Assembly: GCA_020053105.1 (NCBI GenBank)
Contig: JAGVNU010000084.1
Span: 65,133-129,132 of the forward strand
Reading direction: 5' to 3'
Length of the DNA: 64,000 bases
Origin: Thermodesulfovibrionia bacterium
GTDB lineage: Bacteria; Nitrospirota; Thermodesulfovibrionia; UBA6902
Under the pieces are notes generated by a model. It did no database searches and was not told the DNA's origin. It saw only the letters and a program-made list of their open reading frames with translations. This document shows positions 7,287 to 41,536 of this stretch, one piece after another (within the stretch, counting starts at the first letter, position 1; each line of letters opens with the position of its first letter). Both the position numbers and the translations under genes were made by a program.

Positions 7287-7338
7287 TAGAATTGATGGTC
7301 CTTTTGTTTGTCAGATAGTATGCTTGATAATCTGATAA

Positions 7339-8490: not shown

Positions 8491-8745
8491 AAAGCCTCTC
8501 TGGAATGAATCTGATTTCTTCCCTATTGTAACATCTGTCTCCCGCCGATTTTGTGTTTCGCTTTGTGGTATTATGGTACGGTTGCTCTGCGGCAGGACGG
8601 CACTGCTGTTCTTTTCCCGAACTGAAAGCTGATTGCCGAGAGCTGCTTTAAGTTTGAGGGGGATTCAGATTATCACAACTCAATTTTCAAGTCTGGCCCC
8701 GGCGGCTCTTCCTCATTGCATGGTGATCGTCTTGTTTCTGATCTA

Positions 8746-9213
8746 CTAACGTCTTAATTCACGAGGTACATTCTTCAGCCATCCCACATCCATTACAGCC
8801 CAAAAACCAGCGAGAATTGCCTCCGCTGTATCGTGTCTGAGAGAAACAGGCCGGGACAAGCCGGACCATATAATGATCCTGCGCGCCGGATCATCGGCAT
8901 AATGCTTGGCCTTAAGACCGGTAGTCTGTTCACGGGGATACAAAAGCTTCTGCCGCCACTTTTCAGCGTTGATCTGTATTACGGGAATTTTTCTCCGGTC
9001 AGCTTCACGCTGCCATATCAATGCAAGTGGTCCCCCGCCTTCCAGCACAAGGAAGGAGAGACCAGGAAGACTGTTAAGCAGAGTATTAACCCCGCGCCTC
9101 AGGCTTGCGGCCGATCCAAAGTTTTTGGAACGATACCAGCACAACCGTCCGTCCCGGCCGTAAAGCGCAAGGCCCGTCTTTAATCCTAAATCAACAGCAA
9201 GCAGCGATTCCAT
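8746..9213 (-). CDS. hypothetical protein, possible RNase H-fold (RuvC-like) nuclease
   Basis: Acidic residues are spaced as in RuvC-like folds: AVDLGLKTG, VLEGGG, HDTAEAILAG. This is a pattern-level resemblance only. Confidence 0.4.
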   Translation of the reverse strand: MESLLAVDLGLKTGLALYGRDGRLCWYRSKNFGSAASLRRGVNTLLNSLPGLSFLVLEGGGPLALIWQREADRRKIPVIQINAEKWRQKLLYPREQTTGLKAKHYADDPARRIIIWSGLSRPVSLRHDTAEAILAGFWAVMDVGWLKNVPRELRR

Positions 9214-9383
9214 AAGAAATTCATCTTAACAGATTTACGCAATGGTGCAACAGTATCGCAGCTTTATTTTAGAGAAGAAAAACCTATTGCCATTTTCCCG
9301 GATCGATTGACATTTGTCCTGATCGTGATAATCTGATTATGTATTCAGACGGTATCATGTGAAACCATTATTGGAGGCAGGCC

Positions 9384-9884
9384 ATGAAAGTATTAATCAT
9401 AAGCGCAGATAATTTCGAGGACTCAGAACTTCTTGTTCCCTACTACAGGATGCTTGAAGAAGGGCATAATGTCGATATAGCTTCCATGAAAAAAGGCAAG
9501 ATCAAGGGCAAGCACGGATACGAGGTTGATGCAAACAAGGCACTCAAAGACGTTAATCCCGATGATTATGCCCTCCTCATACTCCCTGGCGGCAAGGCGC
9601 CTGAAGCGATTAGAAAAGAACAAAAAGCTCTCGAAATAGCTGGAAATTTTTTTGACCATAACAAACCTGTTGCAGCAATCTGCCACGGTCCTCAGACATT
9701 GATCTCAGCCGGGCTTATGAAAGGTAAACACGCGACCTGTTATCGCTCGGTCGCGCCGGAGATGAAGGAAGCGGGAGCCAGGTACGAAGATAAAGAAGTA
9801 ATCGTTGACGGCAATCTGATCACATCCCGTCAGCCCTCAGACCTGCCGGCTTTTATGCGAAAGATAATGAGGAAGTTATCCTGA
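9384..9884 (+). CDS. DJ-1/PfpI family intracellular protease/deglycase
   Basis: Nucleophile elbow AAICHGPQ and a typical 166-aa type-1 glutamine amidotransferase-like fold sequence. Confidence 0.9.
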   Translation: MKVLIISADNFEDSELLVPYYRMLEEGHNVDIASMKKGKIKGKHGYEVDANKALKDVNPDDYALLILPGGKAPEAIRKEQKALEIAGNFFDHNKPVAAICHGPQTLISAGLMKGKHATCYRSVAPEMKEAGARYEDKEVIVDGNLITSRQPSDLPAFMRKIMRKLS

Positions 9885-10032
9885 ATATTCCCTCTATTTT
9901 CAGCTTGCCCGGTTTTAATGCTATGCGGTTTTCCCCGAAGTGCTCTATGCCCCCGGTGGCTCTCAATGGGTGGTCCTTGAAAAATTAATTCAAAGCTTGT
10001 AAGATTTATTAACTTTTCAAGGGGAAAGGCTG

Positions 10033-10302
10033 ATGAGAATCCAGATTGATCCACATACGCTTGAAAGAGCTATAGAACGTGGTGCAAGCGAGAACGAAAT
10101 AAAAGATGTACTTATTTCCGGCTTTGATATTCCGGCAAAAAGAAACCGGAGAGGCAAGGCAAAAGCCTATCGGTATAATCAAAAACGACTGAATACTTCC
10201 TTTGAACAGAAGAGAATTGAAGTGATATATACTATCGAAGGTGATAGAATAATTACAGTAACCGTTTATGTGTATTACGGCAGCTGGGAGGAGACAAGAT
10301 GA
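10033..10302 (+). CDS. DUF4258-like putative toxin
   Basis: Small basic protein with a 4-nt ATGA overlap to the next ORF. The N-terminal H..ER..ERG pattern is typical of DUF4258. Confidence 0.6.
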   Translation: MRIQIDPHTLERAIERGASENEIKDVLISGFDIPAKRNRRGKAKAYRYNQKRLNTSFEQKRIEVIYTIEGDRIITVTVYVYYGSWEETR

Positions 10303-10514
10303 AAGTTACCTATGACGGGAAATCCGACCTTCTTTATATCCGTTTAGATGAAAGTAAACAGGACGTGATCAATAAACGTGTTGCCGATGATGTTGTTCTG
10401 GATATCGGAGAAGGTGATAAAATTGTCGGGATCGAGATCCTCGAAGCATCTGCACACGTTGATCTCAGCAAGATACTTCCGATCCAGCACGAAGGAATTA
10501 AAGTCTCCGCGTAG
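10299..10514 (+). CDS. DUF2283-like putative antitoxin
   Basis: MKVTYDGKSDLLYIRL...GIEILEAS is characteristic of DUF2283, and it is coupled to the upstream ORF. Confidence 0.65.
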   Translation: MKVTYDGKSDLLYIRLDESKQDVINKRVADDVVLDIGEGDKIVGIEILEASAHVDLSKILPIQHEGIKVSA

Positions 10515-10611
10515 CTTCCCCGCAAACGCCAAAATGAAAGACCTGCCCCCTTCGGCCCGTACTGACGGTTAAGAACTAATTATTGAGAGCTGTCTTTTGC
10601 GCTTTTCCCGC

Positions 10612-11376
10612 TTACGATCTTACTATCTTCCCCGCCGGAGCCAGGTATATGGTAAATTCATCGGTGCCGTCCACGCCGAGAAGTTCGTCCATCAGGTCTT
10701 GCCGGTAAGCTCCTACAGCACAGGTCCCGGCTCCGATCGCCTCGCATGCGAGATAAAGATTCTGACAAACATGTCCCGCGTCGATCGCGATCACTTTGTG
10801 TGCCGCAAGATCGTACCGCCACTCCATCCGGTAGGGAATGGCTGTCCATATGAATACCAAAGGCGCCTTTCCCAGGAACGGCTGATCAAGGCCTGCTGTT
10901 ACTATCCTTTCTGCAAGACCGTCCAATGTATTTTCGAGTACGAGCTGATGCTCGACCGGCAAATACCGGTATATGCCGAGTTCAAGCCCGGCCACGTTAA
11001 GAACGCACAGGTAAGTCTCAAGCGCATGGCGGCATCCTGTTGAAGGCACTGTGCGGTAGGCCGCAGCCGGATCAACTATCTTCTGTACGCCCTGCGTTGC
11101 CCACAGTAAAAAAGATACTTCCTCAAGTGTCATGGGGTCAGGCCTGAAATGACGGTGGCTTCTCCGTCTGTGCATTGCGGTGATGAGATCAATACCCTGT
11201 ATGGAGTTCCATTTCTGCCGGGGAATAAGGTCAATGCGCTGTTGACCCTTTTTACACGGTTTTTCAACAGGCGGAGGAGGAACACCCCTGCTCTGGTCCG
11301 TTCCTGAAAAATCGATCATCAGGCGTATGCTATCCTTTAAATAAAAGCGGTATTGTTCAAAGTCCTTTTTCCCCAT
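10612..11376 (-). CDS. SagB-type dehydrogenase / nitroreductase family protein
   Basis: RRSHRHF FMN-binding-type motif, LLWATQG, and a C-terminal nitroreductase fold pattern. Confidence 0.75.
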   Translation of the reverse strand: MGKKDFEQYRFYLKDSIRLMIDFSGTDQSRGVPPPPVEKPCKKGQQRIDLIPRQKWNSIQGIDLITAMHRRRSHRHFRPDPMTLEEVSFLLWATQGVQKIVDPAAAYRTVPSTGCRHALETYLCVLNVAGLELGIYRYLPVEHQLVLENTLDGLAERIVTAGLDQPFLGKAPLVFIWTAIPYRMEWRYDLAAHKVIAIDAGHVCQNLYLACEAIGAGTCAVGAYRQDLMDELLGVDGTDEFTIYLAPAGKIVRS

Positions 11377-11664
11377 GACCGGCTCCGTTCTTTTGAAATG
11401 TTTCAGATATGCTTTTATTAATTATATATCAGCTGCCACTTCCCCGTACCCCCATCGTCCGAAAAGATCATCCACGTAGGCGATATTATATTTAGAAAGA
11501 ATTTTCTCAACTTGAGCACGTTCTTCCACGCTCCCCTGCCATCCATTTGATTGTCCGGATTCTATAACTTCACTTGCAATGAGTTCCAGCAACCATCGCA
11601 AACGATCCTACGTCCCTGTACTTTCTTGCTACCATGTCTCCCTCCTTTTATGTTAAAAAATATA

Positions 11665-11871
11665 TTAGCTTTCCTGTTCTTCTATATACTGCCTTACTAA
11701 CTCGGTGACTATAACAGCATCAATTGTTTCTCTGCTGTATACAGACCAATATACATCCTTCAAATAATCGTCAAGTACATCATCGATATCTTCACCATCG
11801 TCATTGATCTCCCTGATGACACTTTCTGCAATGCCCTTTATGTACCAGCTCTTGTAAAATTCTTTTTTCAT
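11665..11871 (-). CDS. small acidic hypothetical protein (68 aa)
   Basis: The start is moved to the internal ATG (MKKEFYKSWY...), which has a strong SD (aaggaggggg) upstream. AT-rich islet context. Confidence 0.5.
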   Translation of the reverse strand: MKKEFYKSWYIKGIAESVIREINDDGEDIDDVLDDYLKDVYWSVYSRETIDAVIVTELVRQYIEEQES

Positions 11872-11943
11872 GATCAGCCCCCTCCTTACTCGTGTTATCA
11901 TGTTAACAAATTAACAAGAACATTTTAACCGCTATTTTTTTAT

Positions 11944-11991
11944 TTGTCAACATGTTATTTTGTTGACAAGTTGTTTTTTTTAAAGTACACT
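11944..11991 (+). promoter_or_regulatory. candidate promoter plus operator of the RHH gene
   Basis: 8-bp inverted repeat TTGTCAAC (11944-11951) / GTTGACAA (11962-11969). The second arm contains a perfect TTGACA -35. TACACT lies 17 nt downstream at 11986-11991, and the RBS aggag begins at 12001. Confidence 0.35.
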
Positions 11992-12014
11992 AACAAACAA
12001 AGGAGATTGGTCGA

Positions 12015-12194
12015 ATGGCAAAAAAAAGCGTACCGGCGGCGGGAACTTCCTTACCTAACAAGGTCTTCGGTGTAAGGATGGACCCTGAGCTGGCGAAGAA
12101 GATGAAAATACTGGCAGTGAAGAAGGATACGCAGGTGTATAAGCTGCTTGAGGAAGCGATTGTTGATTTTTTGAAGAAACACAAGGAGTTATGA
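12015..12194 (+). CDS. ribbon-helix-helix (CopG/Arc-like) DNA-binding protein, 59 aa; not in the ORF track
   Basis: My own translation is MAKKSVPAAGTSLPNKVFGVRMDPELAKKMKILAVKKDTQVYKLLEEAIVDFLKKHKEL. The strand-helix-helix pattern (FGVRMDPEL...) and an aggag RBS support it. The tracked antisense ORF 11990-12184 is its shadow. Confidence 0.6.
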   Translation: MAKKSVPAAGTSLPNKVFGVRMDPELAKKMKILAVKKDTQVYKLLEEAIVDFLKKHKEL

Positions 12195-12342
12195 GAGTCA
12201 AACTGTCTCTTTGGACTGTGGTTAAAACGGCTCTATATGAATAGGGGAATTTGTTGGACTGGTTTAAAACGCTAAAATGAAGACTTGGCTCTTATGCCTT
12301 TCTCCGTTAAGCATTAAAGGCAATTGAACTGCGTGCGCCAAT

Positions 12343-12774
12343 ATGGTAACTTATATTACCGTGCTAAATCAGAAGAAAAAAAATCACAAGGCAATTAGAT
12401 TCATTGATTTATTTTGTGGCATTGGTGGATTTCGCTCTGCTATTGAGCAAGCTGCTGATGAATTAGGAATACCCGTTAAATGCAAGTTCTCCAGTGATAT
12501 AGACGAAGATTGCCAGAAAGCTTATGAAGCAAACTTCAGAGAAAGACCCCTCGGAGATATTACAGCAATCAACGCCGAAGACATACCAGACCATGACATT
12601 CTTCTCGCTGGTTTTCCATGTCAGCCTTTCAGCATCATTGGACACAGACATGGATTTAAGGACACTCGAGGAACGCTTTTCTTTGACATTGCCCGCATAA
12701 TTGAAACAAAAAAACCGACTGCATTTTTATTGGAGAACGTTAAGCTGTTAGACTCATATAAAATTGCTGCTTGA
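12343..12774 (+). pseudogene. truncated DNA (cytosine-5) methyltransferase; motifs I-VI only
   Basis: Motif I FIDLFCGIGGF, motif IV GFPCQPFS and motif VI LLENVKLL are followed at once by DSYKIAA-stop. Motifs VIII-X and the target-recognition domain are absent. Confidence 0.8.
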
Positions 12775-12785
12775 GTTATTCGTAA

Positions 12786-13532
12786 ATGAAAAATGCTTTT
12801 TCAATAAGAGATAAATCAATTTTAGTCGGACTTTATTTATCAAAGTTTGATGAAGAAGCATTAAGTGCACTTGGATTTAGAGGATTTAATGAAGCATTCA
12901 ATACGCTGGGCTATTCAATAGGTTCAAAACCCGCTTCAATAAAAAATTACCGTGATGAATTTGACCCTTTATTCCCCAATCAGAGAAAGGGCTGGCATAA
13001 AAGACCAATCAGAGATTATTGCAAAAAGTTTTATGATGATTTTTCTAAATTATCATTTGGCTCTTTCACTGAATTGATTAAGAGTTTTGTTTTTGATAAT
13101 TATGACATAGAAAAAATTGTGGAAAAAGTTGAGAAGAAAAATATGTCTGAAACTGTTGCCAAACGACTTGTGACAGGTAAAGCGGCGGAAGAATATTTCA
13201 AAATAAATTATAAACTTGTATCCAATTTTTTGAATTATGAGTTGAAAGACACGACAAATCTTGCTTGTGGATTTGACTACAAGTTATCGTTGGAAAATGA
13301 TTTTTATTGTGTTGAAGTAAAAGGGTTAAATGCGAATTCAGGTGGAATCGCATTGACAGAGAAGGAATTTTATGTTGCCAATGAATTGAAGAAAAAATAT
13401 TGTCTTTTTGTTGTAATGAATTTTATTGAGAAACCTAATCATCAGTTTTTCTTTGACCCATTAAACAGCAAGTTGACTTTTAAAAAAGTTGAAAGAAAAG
13501 TAACTCAAATAAATTACTCTACTACGATATGA
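12786..13532 (+). CDS. DUF3883 (NOV C-terminal)-like PD-(D/E)xK nuclease-fold protein
   Basis: The C-terminal pattern TGKAAEEYF...CGFDYKL...VEVKG...IALTEKEF...YCLFVV matches the restriction-endonuclease-like DUF3883 core. Confidence 0.55.
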   Translation: MKNAFSIRDKSILVGLYLSKFDEEALSALGFRGFNEAFNTLGYSIGSKPASIKNYRDEFDPLFPNQRKGWHKRPIRDYCKKFYDDFSKLSFGSFTELIKSFVFDNYDIEKIVEKVEKKNMSETVAKRLVTGKAAEEYFKINYKLVSNFLNYELKDTTNLACGFDYKLSLENDFYCVEVKGLNANSGGIALTEKEFYVANELKKKYCLFVVMNFIEKPNHQFFFDPLNSKLTFKKVERKVTQINYSTTI

Positions 13533-13711
13533 ATAACCAATGGGAATGCTATTTATGTGGCAAGGAATCTGCTCTTGAATTAATACCTGGCGGTTGGCTT
13601 GGCAATTATCATCCACTTTGCAATTCTTGCGCTGACACTGTCTTTTTTGATATGACATCCAAATTTCATGATGCTATGACTTTTCATTATTTGATCGGCG
13701 ATTTTTTATAA
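13529..13711 (+). CDS. small zinc-ribbon-like hypothetical protein (60 aa)
   Basis: CYLCG...CNSC pairs, and an ATGA overlap with the upstream stop. Confidence 0.35.
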   Translation: MNNQWECYLCGKESALELIPGGWLGNYHPLCNSCADTVFFDMTSKFHDAMTFHYLIGDFL

Positions 13712-13850
13712 ATGATGATATAGTTCTCCAGCAAACACCTTGGGGAGCAAAGACAGTCAAGAACCGAAGACCTTCAACTGTTTCTAAAATTCGTCTTATA
13801 TCTGGACGCAAGTCCCCTATCTATTCTTTTGGCGACAAAGAAATCAGCGA

Positions 13851-14240
13851 GTGCGCCCAAATGAACTCGGAGAGAACATTCTCTCCATCTGGAACGAGCG
13901 AGTAGCAAGTATTCGCAAACTCTACAAACATGTCAGGACAGTGGTTTTGATTAAGTCCGATGACCTGCTGGAAGCGGCAGTCTTTGAGTTTGAAACTATT
14001 TTATACAGAGCTGAGAACTTCCGGTGGCAATGGAACGAGCGAACCAATCTTGAGGGATTTGACAAGGACAGCAAGCAGCACATCTTTACATGGCAGCCTC
14101 ACGGTTCTCAGTTTACCATCATAGAAGTCGTGCCTGATGATATACTTGCGATACGAATTAAGCAACCTCCACAAGTAGACCGAGACGACATCCTCAAGGC
14201 AATCAAATTTGATGATTCTTGGATAGAAATCATTAAGTGA
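13851..14240 (+). CDS. hypothetical protein, possible C-terminal remnant of a restriction endonuclease
   Basis: GTG-initiated 129-aa ORF between a C5-MTase fragment and vsr. A second open frame runs into it from upstream (see findings). No motif recognised. Confidence 0.4.
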   Translation: MRPNELGENILSIWNERVASIRKLYKHVRTVVLIKSDDLLEAAVFEFETILYRAENFRWQWNERTNLEGFDKDSKQHIFTWQPHGSQFTIIEVVPDDILAIRIKQPPQVDRDDILKAIKFDDSWIEIIK

Positions 14241-14280
14241 CAACATTGACACTTTTTCAAAATCTGAACGCTCAAGAATA

Positions 14281-14775
14281 ATGGCAAGCGTGAAATCCAG
14301 AGGCAATAAATCCACAGAGCTTAAGTTTGTTTCTATCCTCAAGGACAAGGGCATCACAGGGTGGCGTCGCAATTATCCTTTGATCGGCAACCCGGATTTT
14401 GTTTTCCCGAAAAAGAGAACCGCTGTGTTTATTGATGGTTGCTTTTGGCATAGTTGCCCCTTTCATTGCCGCATGCCCGCTTCAAATAAAAACTACTGGA
14501 ATAATAAAATTGGGAAAAATAAGATTAGAGACAAGAAGATAACAAGTACATTGAGGACAAATGGCTGGCAAGTGATTAGAGTCTGGGAACACGAAATTAA
14601 GTCGAGTAAGCTTAGCAATAAATTAAGCAAACTGAAAGATAAACCCTTTCAGCCCTCTTTTTCGTCTGCACCTCACGCGATATCCCTGACAAACTGCTCC
14701 TTAATAACCGGCCCCTCCGCCCAATCAAGCTTATGCAGTTCCTCCGGAGACAGCCATATCATTTCAATTAGGTAA
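14281..14775 (+). CDS. vsr: very short patch repair endonuclease
   Basis: NPDFVFPKKRTAVFIDGCFWHSCP...KNYWNNKIGKNKIRD...GWQVIRVWEHE matches Vsr. Vsr-like residues (DTFSKSERSRI) continue upstream of the first ATG with no canonical start. Confidence 0.85.
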   Translation: MASVKSRGNKSTELKFVSILKDKGITGWRRNYPLIGNPDFVFPKKRTAVFIDGCFWHSCPFHCRMPASNKNYWNNKIGKNKIRDKKITSTLRTNGWQVIRVWEHEIKSSKLSNKLSKLKDKPFQPSFSSAPHAISLTNCSLITGPSAQSSLCSSSGDSHIISIR

Positions 14776-14807
14776 TACCCAACTTCAACGAGGTAATAAC
14801 TGCCAGC
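14673..14807 (-). pseudogene. 3' remnant of a NUDIX (MutT-like) hydrolase gene
   Basis: My own translation of the minus strand is AGSYYLVEVGYYLIEMIWLSPEELHKLDWAEGPVIKEQFVRDIA-stop. It resembles the MutT C-terminus (W.S...L....FP.AN.PVI..L). No NUDIX box or 5' part is present. Confidence 0.35.
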
Positions 14808-15197
14808 TTATTACCCCATTCATGCCACCACATCCTGTGAATAGCGATAGAACTTTCAAGGTTGTTTTATCTTTCAACTTCATAAATTATTTGGATACTA
14901 GGGACACGTCCCTCGATGAAAAATGACAAGATGGCCTTAAGTGCTGTAGAAAAGAGCGAAAGCGCAGGAACGAAACTATCGAACTTGCGATCTTCCCCGC
15001 TTTCAGGCTTTCCCAATTTATTTACAAAAAACAAAGCATAGATGCTTAAAAAAGAAATATCTGATAAACTTACGTAGGGGCAAGGAACATCCTATAGATA
15101 TTTAGGTATTTAAAGATCCGGGAGTTGAATAGAAATAACATTGTAAGATTTCCGGGATAAGGAACCACTATAAAAATCAAAACAGTAAGGAGTATAC

Positions 15198-16160
15198 ATG
15201 AGATCGTTTAGTTCAAATCCCCGGCGTGGGAAATCACGGCCGCAGCAGCGTTCGAATGTGCCGGCGCGCAGGGTTGCTTCATCAGATGAGATAAAGTTTC
15301 TTGCCGGTACGGCAGTAAACCCGCATACGCGTATTATCCTTGAGAAGGGCAGTGATGATTTGTCCGTCCGTGCGCTTGATCTTATTTGTCCAATAGGGAT
15401 GGGACAGCGTGGTCTTGTGGTATCATCGCCCGGGTTGGGTAAGACAACATTCTTAAAGAATATATCTAACGCGGTAACAAACGGGTATCCCGACATGAAG
15501 GTGTATTGCTTACTTGTGGATGAGCGTCCTGAAGAGGTGACGGATTTTACGCGCAGTGTGAAGGCCAAAGTATATTCCTCATCTATGGACCATAGTCAGG
15601 AAAGTCATATCAAGATTGTTGACAAGGTTGTCGCAGAGGCTTTTAAGGAAGCGGCTGCAGGGCATAATGTGATGATATTGCTTGATTCACTTACGCGTCT
15701 GGCGCGGGTACATAACGCACAGCACAGGGGCAGCGGGCGTACGATGTCCGGAGGAGTGGGCGCCGGCGCGCTTGAAGTGCCACGCCGTATTTTTGGTATT
15801 GCCCGTAATGTAGAGGGTCTGGGATCTATAACGATCCTTGCTACGATCCTGGTCGATACAGGCAGCGCAATGGATAATGTTATATTTGAAGAGTTTAAAG
15901 GTACTGGTAATATGGAACTGGTGCTCTCAAAAGAGCTGGCACAAAAGAGGGTGTTCCCGGCAATCGATGTGATAAAGAGCGGTACCCGGCGTGCTGAGCT
16001 TTTGTTTGAGCCGCAAGAGTACAGACGCCTTGAATTATTACGACGGGGCATGGCATCGATGAATAATAGTGTTGCTGCTATGGAAAAGCTGATAGCGATG
16101 CTTCAGAAATATCCGAGCAATAGCGCTCTGCTGGATTCATTTAAGGATGTTAAGGGTTAG
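15198..16160 (+). CDS. Rho-family hexameric ATPase lacking the N-terminal RNA-binding domain
   Basis: RALDLICPIGMGQRGLVVSSPGLGKTT (Walker A), LLVDERPEEV (Walker B), SGRTMSGGVGAGALEVPRRIFGIARN, EEFKGTGNMELVL and VFPAIDVIKSGTRR. The SD taaggag and an in-frame TAA 12 nt upstream fix the N-terminus. Confidence 0.85.
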   Translation: MRSFSSNPRRGKSRPQQRSNVPARRVASSDEIKFLAGTAVNPHTRIILEKGSDDLSVRALDLICPIGMGQRGLVVSSPGLGKTTFLKNISNAVTNGYPDMKVYCLLVDERPEEVTDFTRSVKAKVYSSSMDHSQESHIKIVDKVVAEAFKEAAAGHNVMILLDSLTRLARVHNAQHRGSGRTMSGGVGAGALEVPRRIFGIARNVEGLGSITILATILVDTGSAMDNVIFEEFKGTGNMELVLSKELAQKRVFPAIDVIKSGTRRAELLFEPQEYRRLELLRRGMASMNNSVAAMEKLIAMLQKYPSNSALLDSFKDVKG

Positions 16161-32693: not shown

Positions 32694-32884
32694 GCCCGAA
32701 ACTGATAGTATTCATTCGAATCATAGTATAACATTTATACTTACACAAAATTCCAACTCAAATATTATGTTAAGGCGCTATTTTCTATTCACTATTTTAC
32801 GCCTTATTTTCTTGAACTTTAAGGCTGTTTGGGTTAAGATTAACCGATTGATTTTTTAAGGGGAAATGCACATTCCAAAACAAC

Positions 32885-35800
32885 ATGCTGCTTGATAACA
32901 AAACAAAAAAAGTAGATAACGAGCACTCGACAGTATACGACTTCCTGCGTAACTACATTGAGCATGGAAAGGTCGATATGGTTACCGGCTATTTTTCAGT
33001 CAGCGCACTTGCCAGAATAAAGGATGAGATGAATGGTCCTGAAAGATTTCGCATGGTTCTTGGCAATTTACTTAAAGAAGATAATCAGCAGGACAAGGTC
33101 ATAAATCTTCTAAGTGACTCATTAGGTATTGCTCAAGTATTGAATCTCAATCAGTCGGCTAAAAGGGCAGTTGATTTTCTGAGGCAGGAAAAAGTACAGG
33201 TCAAAACCATTCAACGAAACTTCTGCCATGCAAAGACCTATATGTACCATGATCCGGACCCGCGGAAGAATTTCCATATTGTCGGGAGTTCCAACTTGAC
33301 TGATGCAGGACTTGGAATCAGAGAGTCCGGCAATATTGAGTTAAATTCAGCAAGCACGGGGAATGATAATGATTTCAGGGAACTGACTACCTGGTTTAAG
33401 GATCTGTGGTCGAGTAACGATGCATTAACAACAATTGAACTACCTGATAAGTCAAAAGTCAGTGTGAAAGAACATATCATAAATATTATTCAGAACCTGT
33501 ATAGGAAATACACCCCATATGAACTTTATTACAAGGTGCTTTATGAACTATTCAAAGATGACTTACTATCGCTTTCTCTTGATCCAGAATTTAAAAAAGA
33601 GATATCTCATTTAGAAGATACTCTTATTTATAAGATTCTTTATTCCTTCCAGAAGACAGGAGTAATCAGCCTTATCAAAATGCTTCAAAAAAATAACGGA
33701 GCAATTCTGGCTGATGCAGTGGGATTAGGCAAGACATGGACGGCGCTGGCTGTCATGAAGTATTTTAAAATGAAAGGTTTCAGAGTTATCTTGTTATGTC
33801 CGAAGAAGCTGGATGCCAACTGGAGACAATATCTTGAAGGACATCGCTCAAAATTTGAGAGAGACAGGCTAAAGTACACGATCCGTTATCATACTGATCT
33901 GCAGGATGATAGATTAGAGTCGTATCAGGACGGGTATAAGATAAATACTTTTTTTCAGGGCAATCCCAAGCTTTTAGTTGTAATTGATGAGAGTCATAAT
34001 CTGCGGAATGATAAATCATCCCGCTATAAATTCCTCGTTGATAATATCTTTACCCGGAATAAAGAAGTAAAAGTATTGCAGCTTTCTGCAACACCAATAA
34101 ACAATAAACTGATTGATGTCAGAAACCAGTTTAAATTAATGGTAAAGGGTCAGGATAATGGTTTTAAAGAGACATCGCTGGAGATAGGCAGTCTTGAGAG
34201 CATATTCCGGACGGCTCAGAAAGATTTTAAAACATGGCAAGACAAGGACAATAGAAAGATCAGCGATTTTATCCAGATGCTTCCTCAGAAATTCTTTTCG
34301 CTTACTGATGCATTGATCGTTGCCAGAACCAGGAAACTGATTGTAGGTGAATTTGGCGGCCTGTCCTTCCCCAAAAAAGAAGATCCTGAGAATGAATATA
34401 TTAATCCTGAAAACATTGGTAACTTAAAGACCTTTGAGGAACTATTACACGCAATCGAATCGATTAACCTCATTGCATATATGCCACATAAATATATAGA
34501 GAAAATAGCACCAGAAAGCGTATTGAAAGACGAGGTCCAGCGTGAGGGTTTTCTGGTAAAGATGATGTACATTCTCTTGATGAAGCGTCTTGAATCAAGC
34601 TGGCATTCATTCAATAATACAGTAAATAATATTTATGACCATCACACTAACGCTTTGAAGAAAGTTAATAATTTTAAAGATAGAAAAGAAGATACTTGTC
34701 TTGAAGATGAAATATCAGAGCAAGATAATTTCGAGGATGATCTTGAGGAAACTTCTTCCGAATTTACAGGTGCTGATGATGAAACAGAACAGCTTGAGGA
34801 ATTTACTCTTGGGAAAAAGAACCCTATCAATCTTTCAGATATCAGGTACATTGATATGTTTAAGAGGCATCTTGAAGATGATATTGCCCGGTTGGAGAAA
34901 CTTAAATCAAATCTGGATATATTTGAGCAGAATCTGAAAGAGAAAAAAATAAAAGATATTAAATTGGAAAGACTTGTTGAACATATTGAGAAGAAAAGGA
35001 GAGCGCGCGAAAACCAGAAAGTCATTGTCTTTACAGTCTTCACAGATACAGCACAGTATTTATATGAACAGTTAATTGATAAAGGATTTTCAGGAATTGC
35101 TTATGTGTCAGGCTCACAGTCTGCAACCAGTTACGGCTATAGCGGTAAAAATTTCGAAGGGATATTAGAGCGCTTTGCTCCATATACCAAATTGTACAAG
35201 GAAAAAGACTGGAACTATTTATATGAAGAAAAAGGCATCCTGGAGCCGGAGAGTTTTGGAGATTGGAAAGATATCATAAGAAAGCATGATCCTGAGACGT
35301 TGAGGAAATTAGAAGAGCCCTTAGACATTTTGATAGCTACAGACTGTTTAAGTGAAGGCCAGAACCTGCAGGATTGCGACTGTGTGATCAACTACGATAT
35401 ACACTGGAACCCTGTGAGGATCATTCAGCGAATGGGACGTATAGACCGTCTCGGCTCACCCAATCAAACCATCAAAGGCATAAATTTCTGGCCGGGGAAA
35501 AATTATGAAGATTACCTCAGGCTCAAGACAAGGGTAGAAAACCGGATGGCAGCTATGTCTGTTGTTGGTGCAGAGATAGACGAGAAAATGACCCCGGAAA
35601 TCGAAAAGATGGTTAAAGACAATCCCATAGTCACAAGACAGACAGAGAAAATGCTCAATCAAATGCAGTTTACCTGGGAGGATGTTGAGACCAGTGATGA
35701 AAGTCTGGGGCTGAATGACTTGTCTCTGGAGCAGTTCAGGCAGGAACTGTTCGATATTTTCCAGAAGAACAAAGAGTTATTTGAGAAAATGCCCAACGGT

Positions 35801-36244
35801 ATTTTTACCGGCTTCCAGGCGGAACCGGATAAAAAATATACTGAATTGCCGGAGGGAATTATTGCATTACTGGGTTATCCTAAAAAGCCTGATGACGCTG
35901 ACATGCATAAATATAATGAATATCATCTGCTGTATTCTCATGCGAAAGGATTTTCTACCTACAATAATAATCAGGAAATATTAAGCATATTAAGAAAGCA
36001 TAAAAACAAAATCAGGCTCGTCCCTGATGATGTTGAAAATGGCGATAAGGAAGCCCTGCAATGGTTAAGCGACAGGATAAAAGCATGGATTGAAGGGCAG
36101 GTGCCTCAAAAAGCTATTGATGAAATTCAGGGGATTTTTGCTAATGGTGTGCCTAAAAAGAAATCACCTGAAGATAAGAAACTTGATGATAAGTTTAAGC
36201 CGGACAATTTTGATTTAATCACATGGTTTGTCGTGTCGGAGTGA
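32885..36244 (+). CDS. PLD-family (single HKD) nuclease domain fused to an SNF2-family helicase/translocase
   Basis: HKD motif FCHAKTYMY...HIVGSSNLTDAG (nt 33227-33304). Helicase motif I is LADAVGLGKTW, II is VIDESHNLRN, III is LSATPINN, and the C-lobe is LIATDCLSEGQNLQDC...NPVRIIQRMGRIDRLGS. Confidence 0.85.
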   Translation: MLLDNKTKKVDNEHSTVYDFLRNYIEHGKVDMVTGYFSVSALARIKDEMNGPERFRMVLGNLLKEDNQQDKVINLLSDSLGIAQVLNLNQSAKRAVDFLRQEKVQVKTIQRNFCHAKTYMYHDPDPRKNFHIVGSSNLTDAGLGIRESGNIELNSASTGNDNDFRELTTWFKDLWSSNDALTTIELPDKSKVSVKEHIINIIQNLYRKYTPYELYYKVLYELFKDDLLSLSLDPEFKKEISHLEDTLIYKILYSFQKTGVISLIKMLQKNNGAILADAVGLGKTWTALAVMKYFKMKGFRVILLCPKKLDANWRQYLEGHRSKFERDRLKYTIRYHTDLQDDRLESYQDGYKINTFFQGNPKLLVVIDESHNLRNDKSSRYKFLVDNIFTRNKEVKVLQLSATPINNKLIDVRNQFKLMVKGQDNGFKETSLEIGSLESIFRTAQKDFKTWQDKDNRKISDFIQMLPQKFFSLTDALIVARTRKLIVGEFGGLSFPKKEDPENEYINPENIGNLKTFEELLHAIESINLIAYMPHKYIEKIAPESVLKDEVQREGFLVKMMYILLMKRLESSWHSFNNTVNNIYDHHTNALKKVNNFKDRKEDTCLEDEISEQDNFEDDLEETSSEFTGADDETEQLEEFTLGKKNPINLSDIRYIDMFKRHLEDDIARLEKLKSNLDIFEQNLKEKKIKDIKLERLVEHIEKKRRARENQKVIVFTVFTDTAQYLYEQLIDKGFSGIAYVSGSQSATSYGYSGKNFEGILERFAPYTKLYKEKDWNYLYEEKGILEPESFGDWKDIIRKHDPETLRKLEEPLDILIATDCLSEGQNLQDCDCVINYDIHWNPVRIIQRMGRIDRLGSPNQTIKGINFWPGKNYEDYLRLKTRVENRMAAMSVVGAEIDEKMTPEIEKMVKDNPIVTRQTEKMLNQMQFTWEDVETSDESLGLNDLSLEQFRQELFDIFQKNKELFEKMPNGIFTGFQAEPDKKYTELPEGIIALLGYPKKPDDADMHKYNEYHLLYSHAKGFSTYNNNQEILSILRKHKNKIRLVPDDVENGDKEALQWLSDRIKAWIEGQVPQKAIDEIQGIFANGVPKKKSPEDKKLDDKFKPDNFDLITWFVVSE

Positions 36245-36274
36245 TATAGATCGTGAGAAAAATTAGGGTTAACT

Positions 36275-37735
36275 GTGAAATATAAAATTTTCATCAGCAG
36301 CGTCCAAAAAGAGTTTGCGCAGCAGCGTCTGGATTTGAAGGCCTTTTTGCTTGGTGATGCTGTGTTGCGGCGTTTCGTTTCCGAGGTATTCCTGTTCGAG
36401 GAAATTCCGGCAAAAGACCGTCGCGCTGATCAGCTCTATCTGGAAGAAGTAGAACGCTGCGACATATACCTCGGCCTCTTTGGTTATGAATATGGAAATG
36501 AAGACACGCAGGGCGTGTCCGCAACGGAACGTGAATATATCCATGCAACCCGGCTCGGCAAGACCCGGTTGATTTATGTCTGGGGAGCTGACGAAAAAAA
36601 GCGCGCAGCCAAGATGAAAAAGCTGGTCAGCAAGGCCGGCAGTGCCCTGATCCGCCGTCGTATTGAAGACGGGAGCGCCCTTACCGTAGAGGTCTACGCC
36701 AGTCTTGTTGACTATCTCGATACTAACGGTGCGCTGCGTGTCCCACCGTTCGATACTGCCGCTTGTCATGGGGCCGGACTGAAAGACATCTCCCGAAAAC
36801 GTATCGAATGGTTCCTTGAGGCAGCCCGCCGCGAGCGAGGCTTCCCCCTCAAATCCAATACAACAACAAAGGCCTTGCTCACTCATCTCAACCTTCTCGA
36901 TGAAGGGAAACCGACCAATGCCGCCATAATGCTGTTCGGGATAAATCCCCAGCGCTTTCATCGTACCGCCGAAACCAAGTGCATCCACTGTCATGGCACG
37001 GAATACCGTCGTCCCTTTGCTTCCATGCAGGTGTATGGCGGAGATCTCTTTGAACAGGCTGATGAGACGCAGGATTTCATACTGGGCAAGATCAATCGCT
37101 CAATCGGTACCCGCGCTGTGAGCATCACTGCGCCAGCTACATACGAACTCCCCACTGATGCCATTGCGGAGGCTGTCATCAATGCTATTGCGCATCGCGA
37201 TTATCATAGTAATGCATCTGTTGAAGTCCGCCTGTTTGCGGACCGCCTTGAGGTCTGGAACCCCGGCACTCTGCCCGGTACGCTGACGCTCGACGCTCTG
37301 CGTGATGATCATCCTTCGGTGCCGCACAACCCCTTGATTGCCGAGTCGCTCTACCTGACGCGCTATATCGAAAGGGTTGGTTCCGGCACTCAGACGATGA
37401 TTGAGCTCTTCAGAGAAGCTGGACTGCCGGAACCTCAATTCGAGCAACGGAACGGCTCATTTGTCACTACCCTCTGGCGCGACTGGCTGACAGATAAGAT
37501 ATTGGCTGAGCTTGATCTTAATGAGCGACAAATAAAGGCCCTTCCGGTGATCCGGCAACAGCGGCATTTAACCAATAGCGAATACCAAACCATAACCGGA
37601 GCAACGCGACCAACAGCGAAACGAGATCTTGAAGAACTTGTAAGAAAAGGTGTGGTTGTCCCAAAGGGTAGCGGCAGGGGAGCTCGCTACGAGTTATTTA
37701 AGAAACGGCTCATTAATGGTTCAAATGGATCATAA
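36275..37735 (+). CDS. DUF4062-like N-terminal domain fused to a COG2865-type (HATPase_c_4-like) module and a C-terminal wHTH
   Basis: GTG start. KIFISSVQKEFAQQR...CDIYLGLFGYEYG is DUF4062-like. AIAEAVINAIAHRDY...LEVWNPG is HATPase_c_4-like. LTNSEYQTITGATRPTAKRDLEELVRKG is a wHTH. Confidence 0.7.
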   Translation: MKYKIFISSVQKEFAQQRLDLKAFLLGDAVLRRFVSEVFLFEEIPAKDRRADQLYLEEVERCDIYLGLFGYEYGNEDTQGVSATEREYIHATRLGKTRLIYVWGADEKKRAAKMKKLVSKAGSALIRRRIEDGSALTVEVYASLVDYLDTNGALRVPPFDTAACHGAGLKDISRKRIEWFLEAARRERGFPLKSNTTTKALLTHLNLLDEGKPTNAAIMLFGINPQRFHRTAETKCIHCHGTEYRRPFASMQVYGGDLFEQADETQDFILGKINRSIGTRAVSITAPATYELPTDAIAEAVINAIAHRDYHSNASVEVRLFADRLEVWNPGTLPGTLTLDALRDDHPSVPHNPLIAESLYLTRYIERVGSGTQTMIELFREAGLPEPQFEQRNGSFVTTLWRDWLTDKILAELDLNERQIKALPVIRQQRHLTNSEYQTITGATRPTAKRDLEELVRKGVVVPKGSGRGARYELFKKRLINGSNGS

Positions 37736-37877
37736 GCGGGTGGTGATAGAATGGCTCATAAATGGCTCAAATGGTTCACTGGTAACCCGTCACAAACCCG
37801 TCAAATCTGTCACGAAAAGGGCGTGGACATAGGGACGTTTTTAAATACGCCATAATGACGCCAAATAAAAAAGACCA

Positions 37878-40800
37878 ATGATAAACCTGACCATATTCAA
37901 CAACAACATCTTTGACGCAGGCACTGAGTTTTTCAGCCAGCTTGGCATACGCCTGAACAGCAATACCGCCGTCTCATTAGGGTCAAGAGAGCTATTAAAA
38001 GACCATTATAAAGACAAAGATATTTTCAATGCCATTACAGAAACATATTTTCTGGGCCTTGTGGATGACTCGGTTTTTGAGGGAAACGCCCCCCTTTTGG
38101 GCAAGAAGAAAATCTCTCTCAAAGAAGCGGAAAACAGGATCGATCCGGAATATAAGGGGTTGATGGTCTTTGCTGTAAAGCTGAACGATTCTTACCTTCC
38201 TGTTAGAGGTAAGATAGCCGAACTCACAAGGGCGTTTAACAGGGTAAGCAAAAGTGTTCCGGTTGTACTGCTTCTCAAATATGGCGGTCTGCTTTCCTTT
38301 GCTGCTTCTGAAAGGACTAAATATAAACAGGCATGGAGAGATGGAGAAAAGATAGGGAAGATTTCTCTCCTTAAAGATATTAATCTTAAGTCCCCTCATA
38401 CCGGCCATTTAAAGATACTTTATGATTTAAAGGTTAAGGCTGATGTAAACACCTTTGATGCCCTTTATAAGCAGTGGCAGGAGGTGTTTAATGTTCAACT
38501 GCTGAATAAGAAGTTTTTCAGGGAACTTGCTGACTGGTATTTCTGGGCAATACAGAATGTTGAATTTCCCGATGATGCTGAAAAAGACAAGGCTGTCAGG
38601 AATGCAATAAATGTGATCCGGTTAATCACTCGGATAATATTTGTATGGTTTTTAAAAGAAAAAGATTTGGTGCCCGATTCATTGTTCATCAAAAGCCGTA
38701 TAGACAATATTCTCAACTATACGGATAAAACCGGCTCTACATTTTACAAGGCAATCCTGCAGAATTTGTTTTTCGCCACTCTCAATACTGAAATGAACAA
38801 GGACAAGCCCGGAAACCGTATCTTTGTAAACAGGCAATATGGGATAACAAATCTTTACCGGTATGAGAGGTTTTTTAAAGACAAAGATAAGGCATTGGCA
38901 TTATTTAAAAACATTCCATTTCTTAACGGCGGTCTCTTTGAATGTCTTGACAAGGATTTATCCCCCACTTTGGAAAAGGGGGGTGAGGGGGGATTTTCCA
39001 ATAAAAAGACAATCCGCATTGATTGTTTTTCAAACAGAAGAGATAATGAAACACGCCTCACCGTGCCGGACCATTTATTTTTCAATCCCGAAGGCCGGAT
39101 AGTTGATCTTAGCGATGTATATGGAGACAAGAAAAGGAAAAGCGAAAAGGTCAGAGGCCTTATCGACATCCTCGACAGCTATAAATTCACCGTCGATGAA
39201 AATACACCTATTGAAGAGGAAATCGCGCTTGACCCTGAATTATTGGGCAAGGTATTTGAAAATCTTCTGGCAAGTTATAACCCTGAGACCCAGACCACAG
39301 CACGGAAGCAGACAGGATCTTTCTACACACCGAGAGAGATCGTCAATTATATGGTCGATGAATCGTTGATTGCGTATTTGACCACAACCCTTGAGCGTCA
39401 TTCCCGCGAAGGCGGGAATCCAGAGGAACTGGATGCCCGATTAAAAACTTCGGGCATGACGGAAAAGAAGAACAACGATTCCCGTCTTCGCCACCTCGTC
39501 GCATACAATGACGACCCGCATAAATTCACCCCGGTTGAGGTTGATATTCTCATTGCAGCAATCAATACACTGAAGGCCCTCGACCCTGCATGCGGTTCCG
39601 GGGCCTTTCCGATGGGAATGCTTCATAAGCTGGTTTACATCCTTGGCAAGCTTGATCCTGATAATTCAAAATGGCGCGAGCTACAGAAGCAAAAGGCGAT
39701 CAGGGAGACAGAAGAAGCCTACAATATCGGCGACAAGGAAGAGCGTAACAAGCGCCTTCAGGATATAAGTGAGGTTTTTGAAAACAATGCCTCTGATTAT
39801 GGAAGGAAGCTTTATCTTATTGAGAACTGCATCTTCGGCGTTGACATTCAGCCGATAGCAGTGCAGATCGCGAAGCTGAGGTTTTTTGTGTCGCTGATAG
39901 TTGACCAGCGGATCAACCCCAAAAAAGAAAACCTCGGTGTGCGGCCCTTGCCTAATCTTGAGACGAAGTTTGTGGCGGCAAATACGCTGATTGGGATTGA
40001 TAAGCCGAAGTTTATGACATTGGGATTAAGAAATCTCAATATTGACATAAAGGAAAAAGAGCTTAAGCAAGTGAGAGAAAAACACTTCTCTGCAAGGACG
40101 CCTAAAACCAAGGAGAAATACCGGAATGAAGATGCCAGACTCAGAGCAGAATTAGCAGAACTTTTTAAAAACGACGGATTCAGCGCCGAGACAACTCACA
40201 AGTTATCCGAATGGAACCCTTATGACCAGAATGCCCATGCCGATTTTTTTGATCCCGAATGGATGTTCGGCGAAAAGAACGGATTTGACATCTCCATCGG
40301 CAATCCGCCTTATGTGAGGGCTGATTCGGGCCTTGAGCATTTGGCTCTGCGCCAATCTATTATCGAAAGCAAGCAATACGAAACTCTCTGGGAGAAGTGG
40401 GACCTATTTGTTCCCTTCATTGAGTATGGTTACAAGCTTTTAAAACCGGGCGGTATAACCACGATGATAGTGTCCGACGCCTATTGCCATTCCAAGTACG
40501 CACAAAAATCTCAAAAGTGGTTTCTGCAAAACAGCAGGATTTTACGCCTGGACTTTTTGAGCAAGATAAAGGTATTCGAGGCTGGTGTTCATAACATTGT
40601 CTATTTCTTCCAGAAAGCTGAAGGCAGTGGCAACAAGCCGGAGCGGCGGGAACATGAGGATGAGTTTGGAAAGGTGAAGGTATTGCCGACAGATGAGCAG
40701 CGGAATCTTACGTATCGGGCATTCTTCCCTCAGGAACAAGGGGAAAATATTAGTGGCATACCGTTAGAAGAAATATGTTATATCACTTATGGTTTAAGGC

Positions 40801-41525
40801 CAAGCAGCGATGAGCATGAAGCAAAAGGGGAGTTTGTTACCGCTGATCTGGTATCTGAAAAGAAAGATAGTATTCATTGTAAACCTTATGTTGAAGGGAA
40901 ACATCTTAACAATTGGTATCGCGGTACGCATCTTTGGATTGAATGGGGTACTAAACGCGCACCAGCACTTTTTTGCCGTCCTACATTCCCTGAACTTTAT
41001 ATAATCAAAGAGAAGCTTCTTGCACAAAGAAGTCCTGGTCCCGATCCGGTGGCGTGTTATGACGATGAAAAACTTGTATTTACACCTGCCAGTGTTGGCT
41101 TCATCCCTTGGCATGACTTGGCAGGAGTTCGCAATAATTCACTGAAAAAGGCGGCTCGTTACCGTGGCGAACGTCCTGTTCGTCATGACATGCCGAAACG
41201 TGAAGAGTTGGAAGTCACAAGCAAACGCTTTGAGGTTAAGTACCTACTTGCGGTGATGAACTCGACAGTGGCGCGTGATTTTCTGCGGGCAAATCGTCGG
41301 AGCAATATTCACCTCTACCCTGACGACTGGAAGAAACTGCCTATTTCCGATGTCTCGCAGGAGAAGCAGAAGCCGATTGTGGCATTAGTCGACCAAATCC
41401 TCGCCTCCAAAAAGAAAGACCCCAACGCCGACACCTCCGCCCTCGAAAAACAGATCGACGAAATGGTCTATGCCCTCTACGGCCTCACGCCGGAGGAGAT
41501 TGCGATTGTGGAGGGGAAGGGATGA
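37878..41525 (+). CDS. Eco57I/PglX-type gamma-class N6-adenine DNA methyltransferase with TaqI_C-like specificity domain (1215 aa)
   Basis: GSFYTPREIV (motif X), LDPACGSGAF (motif I, nt 39579-39608), NPPY (nt 40302-40313), FLNGGLFE, and a C-terminal TRD ending in the typical YALYGLTPEEIAIVEG. Confidence 0.85.
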   Translation: MINLTIFNNNIFDAGTEFFSQLGIRLNSNTAVSLGSRELLKDHYKDKDIFNAITETYFLGLVDDSVFEGNAPLLGKKKISLKEAENRIDPEYKGLMVFAVKLNDSYLPVRGKIAELTRAFNRVSKSVPVVLLLKYGGLLSFAASERTKYKQAWRDGEKIGKISLLKDINLKSPHTGHLKILYDLKVKADVNTFDALYKQWQEVFNVQLLNKKFFRELADWYFWAIQNVEFPDDAEKDKAVRNAINVIRLITRIIFVWFLKEKDLVPDSLFIKSRIDNILNYTDKTGSTFYKAILQNLFFATLNTEMNKDKPGNRIFVNRQYGITNLYRYERFFKDKDKALALFKNIPFLNGGLFECLDKDLSPTLEKGGEGGFSNKKTIRIDCFSNRRDNETRLTVPDHLFFNPEGRIVDLSDVYGDKKRKSEKVRGLIDILDSYKFTVDENTPIEEEIALDPELLGKVFENLLASYNPETQTTARKQTGSFYTPREIVNYMVDESLIAYLTTTLERHSREGGNPEELDARLKTSGMTEKKNNDSRLRHLVAYNDDPHKFTPVEVDILIAAINTLKALDPACGSGAFPMGMLHKLVYILGKLDPDNSKWRELQKQKAIRETEEAYNIGDKEERNKRLQDISEVFENNASDYGRKLYLIENCIFGVDIQPIAVQIAKLRFFVSLIVDQRINPKKENLGVRPLPNLETKFVAANTLIGIDKPKFMTLGLRNLNIDIKEKELKQVREKHFSARTPKTKEKYRNEDARLRAELAELFKNDGFSAETTHKLSEWNPYDQNAHADFFDPEWMFGEKNGFDISIGNPPYVRADSGLEHLALRQSIIESKQYETLWEKWDLFVPFIEYGYKLLKPGGITTMIVSDAYCHSKYAQKSQKWFLQNSRILRLDFLSKIKVFEAGVHNIVYFFQKAEGSGNKPERREHEDEFGKVKVLPTDEQRNLTYRAFFPQEQGENISGIPLEEICYITYGLRPSSDEHEAKGEFVTADLVSEKKDSIHCKPYVEGKHLNNWYRGTHLWIEWGTKRAPALFCRPTFPELYIIKEKLLAQRSPGPDPVACYDDEKLVFTPASVGFIPWHDLAGVRNNSLKKAARYRGERPVRHDMPKREELEVTSKRFEVKYLLAVMNSTVARDFLRANRRSNIHLYPDDWKKLPISDVSQEKQKPIVALVDQILASKKKDPNADTSALEKQIDEMVYALYGLTPEEIAIVEGKG
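38961..38997. repeat. C-tract/G-tract miniature element embedded in frame in the methyltransferase CDS
   Basis: tcccccactttggaaaaggggggtgaggggggatttt encodes SPTLEKGGEGGF directly after the conserved FLNGGLFE motif. CCCCC/GGGGG can pair. Confidence 0.45.
39397..39460. repeat. 64-nt palindromic MITE/REP-like element embedded in frame in the methyltransferase CDS
   Basis: GTCATTCCCGCGAAGGCGGGAATCCAG-aggaa-CTGGATGCCCGATTAAAAACTTCGGGCATGAC. It has GTCAT/ATGAC termini, a central TCCAG/CTGGA stem, and two internal hairpins. Confidence 0.55.
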
Positions 41526-41536
41526 ACAAATCAAAC

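Follow-up and report, generated by a model that had tools for sequence, protein, structure and literature searches.

A PLD-SNF2 helicase-nuclease and its methyltransferase partner in a Thermodesulfovibrionia bacterium: a predicted two-gene restriction-modification-like defence system

What is the role of a phospholipase D (PLD)-type nuclease that is joined to an SNF2 translocase at the latter's N-terminus, and with which partner does it act? The question is raised by a gene at 32885-36244 on the forward strand of a 64,000-nucleotide stretch of the genome of a Thermodesulfovibrionia bacterium (GenBank assembly GCA_020053105.1, contig JAGVNU010000084.1, positions 65,133 to 129,132), hereafter called the window. 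We designated the PLD-SNF2 product of this gene P0001, the product of the middle gene that follows it P0002, and the methyltransferase encoded by the third gene P0003. The comparisons described below make P0001 the probable restriction subunit of a defence system that resembles ATP-dependent restriction-modification, is compact and horizontally acquired, and has the methyltransferase encoded at 37878-41525 as the obligatory partner. An earlier note on this DNA had described the fusion protein, and the decisive context, namely, the methyltransferase partner two genes downstream, was absent from it. The features on which this reading is based are as follows.

32885-36244, forward strand: PLD(HKD)-SNF2 helicase-nuclease P0001, predicted restriction subunit; uninterrupted open reading frame (ORF) with an ATG start, 1119 amino acids (aa)
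32942-33430, forward strand: PLD nuclease domain of P0001, residues about 20-182; PLDc_2 match above the cut-off, SauUSI PLD profile match at E 2e-10
33227-33295, forward strand: catalytic HxK...GSSN motif (H115, K117, G134-N137), by conservation in homologues
37878-41525, forward strand: partner P0003, a gamma-class N6-adenine methyltransferase of Eco57I/PglX/MmeI type with a C-terminal recognition domain, 1215 aa; Eco57I match at E 8.5e-31

The pairing of these two genes is very common and widespread. Among the close orthologues of P0001 (59-95% identity), we counted those distinct loci that are long enough to reveal the gene downstream of the helicase, and in 13 of 13, as in the window, a methyltransferase of the P0003 type was present downstream on the same strand. 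The complete partners are Eco57I/MmeI_Mtase/TaqI_C proteins of 1120-1392 aa, while two are cut by a contig end and one is truncated. A similar arrangement was detected for distant homologues (30-37% identity) within Nitrospirota, where 13 of 19 genomes carry an Eco57I-type methyltransferase of at least 1190 aa downstream on the same strand, in 11 cases within about 2.5 kb of the helicase. In none of these 19 genomes does a distant homologue share a contig with a DUF499 gene or lie within 1 Mb of one. The identities of the helicase and of the methyltransferase to their window counterparts co-vary (Spearman 0.82, n=12, from related sequences that are not independent), a relation that fits the apparent inheritance of both genes as one unit.

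P0003 carries the methyltransferase motifs I (DPACGSGAF) and IV (NPPY), in this order along the chain. When five partner methyltransferases were aligned, the N-terminal 500 aa and the catalytic motifs were almost invariant, and complete divergence was observed after NPPY, as would be expected for a putative swappable recognition domain. The candidate ExK position of these five proteins, where a Type IIG/IIL enzyme would carry the motif of its N-terminal PD-(D/E)xK nuclease, is occupied by K, E, E, Q and E with no lysine following, and a Pfam scan of P0003 detected no nuclease domain. In one relative, a 95%-identical orthologue at a different chromosomal site (L005/L007, Nitrospirae metagenome-assembled genome, JACQZF010000006.1), the helicase-nuclease is intact and the methyltransferase is not: at L005 12357-15274, residues 2-493 are present and the catalytic core, residues 494-1112, is gone. 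Two separate remnants of the methyltransferase C-terminus follow in L005, one of which has 29 residues at 100% identity to the window. P0003 itself has two in-frame insertions, SPTLEKGGEGGFSNKK and ERHSREGGNPEELDARLKTSGMTEKKNNDS, at window positions 38955-39000 and 39390-39480 (residues ~360-375 and ~505-535), which are absent from the four other aligned partner methyltransferases. At the position of the second insertion, the methyltransferase of locus L001 contains a much larger one that includes a DUF559 domain.

Is the N-terminal domain of P0001 that of a PLD nuclease? A single copy of the HKD motif is present (C114-H115-A-K117-TYMY ... V133-G134-S-S-N137-L-T139), and a second 'HAK' at residue 1019 is not conserved. 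Pfam PLDc_2 matched residues 61-175 (E 8.8e-8, 32.5 bits versus a cut-off of 27) and the SNF2-rel_dom profile matched the motor (52.7 bits versus a cut-off of 24.9), in agreement with the earlier description of a single-HKD nuclease at the N-terminus of an SNF2 translocase. Across the family, PLDc_2 matched 27 of 27 diverse N-terminal domains (best E 8e-14), and the NgoFVII PLD restriction-nuclease domain matched 23 of the same 27. A profile of these 27 domains, searched against the PDB, aligned with the PLD nuclease of SauUSI (7clg_A) over residues 94-179 at E 2e-10, with HxK, GSSNlT and N-E-L in register, and more weakly with R.NgoVII (0.055) and Zucchini (0.7). Single-sequence searches of the PDB with P0001 or its first 252 residues gave SNF2 matches only and, for the N-domain, noise. 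The His and Lys of the HKD motif, for which the earlier note had proposed a conservation check among orthologues, were retained in 64 (H115) and 63 (K117) of 66 diverse representatives down to ~30% identity. In this same set, G134, S135, N137, T139, N150 and E152 were each retained in 62-65 of 66, and all of these residues, H115 and K117 included, were invariant in 105 of 105 close orthologues. In the full-length AlphaFold model, the N-domain's pLDDT (predicted local distance difference test) score was about 80 with dips at loops, and strands and helices alternate. The sequence profiles identify the P0001 N-terminus as a PLD nuclease domain.

The remainder of P0001 is divided as follows.

33632-34144, forward strand: SNF2 ATPase lobe 1 (motifs I, II and III); SNF2-rel_dom at residues 255-416, E 4.5e-14
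34145-34954, forward strand: inter-lobe insert, residues about 421-690, chiefly long helices in the AlphaFold model
34703-34801, forward strand: acidic disordered tract, residues 607-639, by composition and pLDDT < 50 over 603-638
34955-35494, forward strand: SNF2 ATPase lobe 2 (motifs IV-VI); Helicase_C at residues 804-857, E 3.5e-16
35495-36244, forward strand: C-terminal alpha/beta region, residues 871-1119, conserved across full-length family members

All ATPase motifs were found to be intact, namely, GLGKT (280-284), DESH (368-371), SATP (401-404), SEGQN (823-827) and QRMGRIDR (848-855), and the motor matched SNF2h, CHD1L, RapA and SsoRad54 in the PDB profile search. The distance between motif III and motif IV is about 310 residues, and residues 607-639 include 17 acidic and no basic residues among 33, so that the long acidic inter-lobe insert noticed earlier is borne out. 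The negative charge of this loop was retained in 66 of 66 diverse representatives, while its sequence varies. The AlphaFold model places helices at 437-484, 550-606 and about 656-707, with the disordered segment 603-638 between the last two, and these two long helices would accommodate the coiled-coil that the earlier note had predicted for the insert. With the full model as the query, Foldseek returned a helicase-dominated list, with RapA at the top followed by other SNF2/SF2 (superfamily 2) motors and with SauUSI at rank 44 (E 8.8e-7, 918 columns); the TM-scores were low because the inter-domain geometry of the model is uncertain. For the C-terminal region (871-1119), no match was obtained in a Pfam scan, and no invariant acidic or lysine catalytic set was detected in its alignment.

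Is this fusion new? The earlier note took it for a distinct architecture, a view that the literature and the database searches do not sustain: the PLD-SNF2 fusion is already described and common, and P0001 is a new member of a known family with thousands of members. Fusions of HKD nucleases with SWI2/SNF2 ATPases in bacterial restriction-modification were mentioned in 2012 with citation of work from 2006 (PMC3417536). The cluster C3a139 HKD+Snf2 was defined in 2018 in a survey of genes adjoining type III CRISPR loci (PMC6546367), and the PADLOC model 'C3a139, HKD+Snf2' matched P0001 at E 3e-80. The HKD-Swi2/Snf2 fusion is also the defining effector of the Type-2 BREX-related systems, reported from 921 taxa (PMC12839542); MANTIS is the new name of these systems, formerly Gao_RL, and MtsD is their effector (10.64898/2026.09.23.753747). 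A word-indexed search with P0001 gave > 7900 hits, of which the best 120 were full-length proteins of about 1125 aa with 58-95% identity; the named sources among these 120 were metagenome bins of Nitrospirota, Bacteroidota, Desulfobacteraceae and Ignavibacteriaceae. An exhaustive search of 50%-identity cluster representatives identified 15,612 clusters at E<=1e-3, of which 1107 reached E<=1e-30, with dozens collinear with P0001 over residues 1-1118. The pair with a PglX-like methyltransferase and without an AAA+ loader is a variant of the known systems.

How might the two proteins work together? The methyltransferase would read a short sequence via its variable C-terminal recognition domain and methylate the host DNA, as its motifs and conservation pattern suggest. 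On unmethylated foreign DNA, the site-bound methyltransferase would recruit or activate the PLD-SNF2 protein; the strict synteny points to this step, as does the L005/L007 relative, which suggests that the PLD-SNF2 nuclease does no harm when its partner is missing. By homology to SauUSI and MtsD, P0001 is expected to be a homodimer joined via its PLD domains with one joint active site, and its SNF2 motor, with its motifs intact, would track along duplex DNA using ATP. The PLD site would then cut the two strands in turn and away from the recognition site, by analogy with MANTIS, Type III and Type ISP enzymes, and by the same analogy the cutting would probably be most efficient when the motor meets another site-bound complex. 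More speculatively, the acidic loop of the insert may be an autoinhibitory or partner-docking element.

Each P0001 chain has one HKD motif, and single-HKD nucleases need two copies, as established for Nuc and BfiI, which the earlier note had correctly described as a feature of dimers. It had also predicted that cleavage needs a meeting of two motors, which can be read as a nuclease that is assembled by collision: a P0001 monomer would translocate, and the HKD halves would join to form the active site on no other occasion than the collision of two motors that were loaded separately. Cutting upon collision is established for Type I and Type ISP enzymes. The two PLD-helicase relatives that have been solved or characterised, however, are stable dimers with a pre-formed PLD site. 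SauUSI dimerizes stably through its nuclease domains, translocates and cuts single-site DNA (PMC7913695), and the N-domain of P0001 is homologous to that of SauUSI at the E value given above. The cryo-electron microscopy structure of MtsD, which resembles SauUSI, is a dimer in which two PLD domains form one active site above two SF2 ATPase domains, and restriction by MANTIS is orientation-dependent (10.64898/2026.09.23.753747). In both SauUSI and MANTIS, collisions were proposed as the trigger of cutting and not as site assembly (PMC7913695, 10.64898/2026.09.23.753747). A single HKD motif does not by itself imply that two motors must meet. We consider assembly of the nuclease by collision to be unlikely, and a restriction subunit that is a dimer before it moves remains our preferred form of P0001.

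A second explanation is that the two genes are independent and share nothing more than a defence island, the methyltransferase being a self-contained Type IIG/IIL enzyme, with P0001 as a SauUSI-like (Type IV-like) nuclease that acts by itself. The PADLOC Type IIG models match P0003 at E 5e-65, the C-terminal 250 aa of P0001 could read DNA, and SauUSI is known to act alone (PMC7913695). This explanation is at odds with the conservation of gene order and strand across families down to 30% identity and with the co-varying identities, and a Pfam scan of P0001 revealed no SRA/DUF3427 or other reader domain. The presence of K, E or Q at the putative ExK position in the N-domain of the five partners also argues against a self-contained enzyme, and self DNA would come under attack if a modification-dependent nuclease were encoded next to its own methylase. 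Independence of the two genes is thus quite unlikely, and we continue to regard them as one restriction-modification-like unit.

How did this unit come to lie in the window? The relevant features are as follows.

32737-41530, no strand assigned: three-gene island within the purL-purF spacer, from comparison with relatives and guanine-cytosine (GC) content
36275-37735, forward strand: optional cargo gene encoding P0002 (DUF4062, HATPase_c_4 and winged-helix, 486 aa), from Pfam and the comparison of loci

The three genes are on the same strand in the order P0001, P0002 (30 bp on) and P0003 (a further 142 bp on), with purF and purL as flanks. The distance from the end of purL to purF is about 74 bp in at least five relatives from this genus and family, and the island junctions keep the last 43 bp ahead of the purF ATG as well as about 11 bp past the purL stop. 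The ends of the old spacer are recognisable at both junctions, indicating that the 8.8-kb cassette is a clean insertion into the purL-purF spacer. The GC content is 38.5% for P0001, 52.4% for P0002 and 44.4% for P0003, compared with 49-50% for purF and purL. P0001 homologues are patchily distributed, being present in 20 of 301 Nitrospirota genomes, and they are found on 142 plasmids. The three-gene island is horizontally acquired. The 43 bp upstream of purF (window 32694-32736) contain a TATACT box that is conserved with the relatives despite the insertion, and purF, now separated from purL, has probably retained a proximal promoter of its own. In a same-genus relative (L042, G302:C126, 155-1501), the purL-purF gap is about 1.3 kb instead of 74 bp, and this spacer may be a recurrent insertion site.

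The slot between the helicase and the methyltransferase is variable. It is empty in L004, L009, L013, L034 and L035, and is occupied by KilA-N in L001, L002/L003 and L033, by HEPN and nucleotidyltransferase (MNT) in L006, and by two small ORFs in L032. Among the close loci compared, an intact DUF4062 gene in this slot was detected in the window only. Remnants of P0002 were found in the closest relatives, at L008 13391-13702 (residues 1-53 fused to 435-486) and at L010 13372-13602 (residues 412-486); therefore, this cargo gene is gained and lost through internal deletion at the junction. The GC content of P0002 also sets it apart from both neighbouring genes. The DUF4062-HATPase_c_4 gene is an add-on outside the core.

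Does the pair belong to a system that is already named? MANTIS is alike in its effector, since MtsD consists of an N-terminal single-HKD PLD nuclease and an SF2/Swi2-Snf2 ATPase with extra helicase inserts, as does P0001. An N6-adenine methyltransferase sets the specificity in MANTIS as it would at the P0001 locus, and the dimer with one PLD site, shown for MtsD, is expected for P0001. In contrast, MANTIS needs MtsA (DUF499 AAA+) and MtsB (DUF3780), neither of which is present in the window island, and its methyltransferase MtsC is of the alpha class with a central recognition domain, whereas P0003 is of the gamma class, Eco57I/PglX-like, with a C-terminal one. A PF04465 (DUF499) profile search of the 83%-complete genome gave no match, in the island or elsewhere; a DUF3780 search of the genome also gave none, as was the case for the control genomes, and no such ORF was present in the island, whose three genes leave no space for another. 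P0001 scored 96 bits against NF042964, the NCBIfam 895-aa PLD-helicase anti-phage model, for which the cut-off is 1100. Membership in MANTIS or the Type-2 BREX-related systems was accordingly rejected on DUF499, DUF3780 and the methyltransferase class, although the HKD-SF2/Snf2 fusion and the overall logic are common to both.

Class 1 DISARM likewise combines an SNF2 ATPase (DrmD), a PLD nuclease (DrmC) and an Eco57I-like adenine methyltransferase (DrmMI). It differs from the window locus in that PLD and SNF2 are encoded by separate genes, as the earlier note had rightly stated, and in the presence of DrmA and DrmB (DUF1998). A PF09369 (DUF1998/MZB) search of the 83%-complete genome gave no match, and P0001 scored 139 bits against the DrmD model NF038317, below the cut-off of 610. 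In the absence of any DrmA/DrmB match and with this score, membership in DISARM was rejected.

The locus might instead be part of a MANTIS, BREX-related or DISARM system that is incomplete or has degenerated, with the other parts elsewhere or lost, such that the locus is non-functional alone. The effector architecture of MtsD, the resemblance of the methyltransferase to PglX and DrmMI, and the 83% completeness of the genome are compatible with this explanation, yet DUF499, DUF1998/MZB and DUF3780 were all without a match in this genome, and the methyltransferase is of class gamma versus alpha in MtsC. Moreover, the island is located between housekeeping genes with the empty site intact in relatives, and the same two-gene core, with no DUF499, DUF1998 or DUF3780 genes, is found on many unrelated contigs. 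A broken remnant of a larger system is therefore improbable, and the pair is better regarded as a two-gene system in its own right. A role unrelated to restriction, either as a RapA-like housekeeping or SNF2 repair protein or as an accessory of type III CRISPR, is suggested by RapA as the best Foldseek match and by the origin of the C3a139 model in a CRISPR-neighbourhood screen (PMC6546367), and is hardly credible in view of the patchy distribution, the recent insertion with foreign GC content, the conserved nuclease residues, the obligatory methyltransferase linkage and the absence of cas genes from the island. A CRISPR accessory role was likewise rejected.

Other restriction enzymes share the logic of the pair. 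SauUSI (Type IV, PDB 7CLG) resembles P0001 in that an SF2 translocase is preceded by an N-terminal PLD nuclease, the PLD domains being homologous, and is unlike it in having its own SRA-like recognition domain, a methylated-cytosine target, a non-SNF2 motor and no methyltransferase partner. In Type ISP (LlaGI/LlaBIII) and Type III enzymes, as in the window pair, an ATP-driven motor-nuclease is coupled to a gamma-class methyltransferase and a recognition module, and a hemimethylation logic with orientation-dependent long-range cleavage would be expected for the pair as well. Type ISP enzymes are, however, single polypeptides whose nuclease is Mrr/PD-ExK and whose SF2 motor is of another kind, whereas the window system has two genes, a PLD nuclease and an SNF2 motor; the nuclease of Type III Res is a C-terminal PD-ExK domain, compared with PLD in P0001. 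Given the two separate genes and the PLD instead of the Mrr nuclease, membership in Type ISP was rejected.

On plasmids, a full-length PLD-SNF2 homologue (29-30% identity) is the first gene of operons that also include a methyltransferase, as at the window locus. The partners in these operons are different, namely, DUF4391, a methyltransferase of ~540-620 aa and a DEAD/DEAH-box helicase. The PLD-SNF2 effector is therefore a module reused with different modification modules. The four-gene operon, with a site-specific methyltransferase, was observed in L037 (Acinetobacter sp. NEB149 plasmid pMsp65, 6998-16967) and L038 (Enterococcus hirae plasmid, 6965-15906). Listeria, Enterococcus, Bacillus and Acinetobacter are the source of many of the 142 plasmid records in which a P0001 homologue occurs. 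A literature search for the PLD-SNF2/DUF4391 plasmid operons found no characterisation of them.

Several points weigh against P0001 as the restriction subunit of a working two-gene system. The nuclease activity of MtsD was not reconstituted in vitro (10.64898/2026.09.23.753747). The related MANTIS effector needs an AAA+ loader and a co-regulator that are absent here, and the two-gene system may thus be incomplete or work differently; unlinked partners are possible, as the genome is 83% complete. The truncated methyltransferase of L005/L007 could be an assembly artefact. A promoter and terminator scan revealed nothing above the shuffled background. The full-length AlphaFold model of P0001 is of moderate quality (mean pLDDT 66.7, predicted template modelling score 0.41), and a model of the N-terminal 240 residues, built from a 14-sequence alignment, had a pLDDT of 40. 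Finally, a literature search for a name of, or an experiment on, the PLD-SNF2 and methyltransferase pair found none.

What would such a pair mean beyond the window? We tentatively propose, at somewhat less than an even chance, that PLD-SNF2 and the PglX/Eco57I-like methyltransferase constitute an autonomous, minimal 'split Type ISP' system with a PLD nuclease and an SNF2 motor and without an AAA+ loader, present across many phyla and mis-annotated as Type IIG, in which the acidic loop would be a DNA-mimicking autoinhibitor released by the site-bound methyltransferase. Annotation pipelines appear to score the pair as a self-contained "Type IIG" enzyme, leaving the true nuclease gene as a "helicase-related protein"; should the pair be shown to work in restriction-modification, a sizeable block of the "Type IIG" calls would have to be read anew. 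If true, the system would also be a simpler model than MANTIS or DISARM for a methyltransferase that passes unmethylated DNA to a PLD-helicase effector, and a test of whether the MANTIS AAA+ loader is dispensable with a PglX-type methyltransferase.

Proteins with HATPase_c_4 and winged-helix domains and varied N-terminal domains recur beside the PLD-SNF2/methyltransferase pairs, at window 36275-37735 and at L002 18310-19818, L033 16488-17990, L003 17081-19158, L014 and L016. The window protein has a DUF4062 head and those of two Bacteroidota loci have a dCMP deaminase head, and in one locus DUF4062 is encoded by a separate gene. With the association also seen in the 30%-identity subfamilies, these proteins look like a family of accessory sensors/effectors in which the head domain can be swapped.

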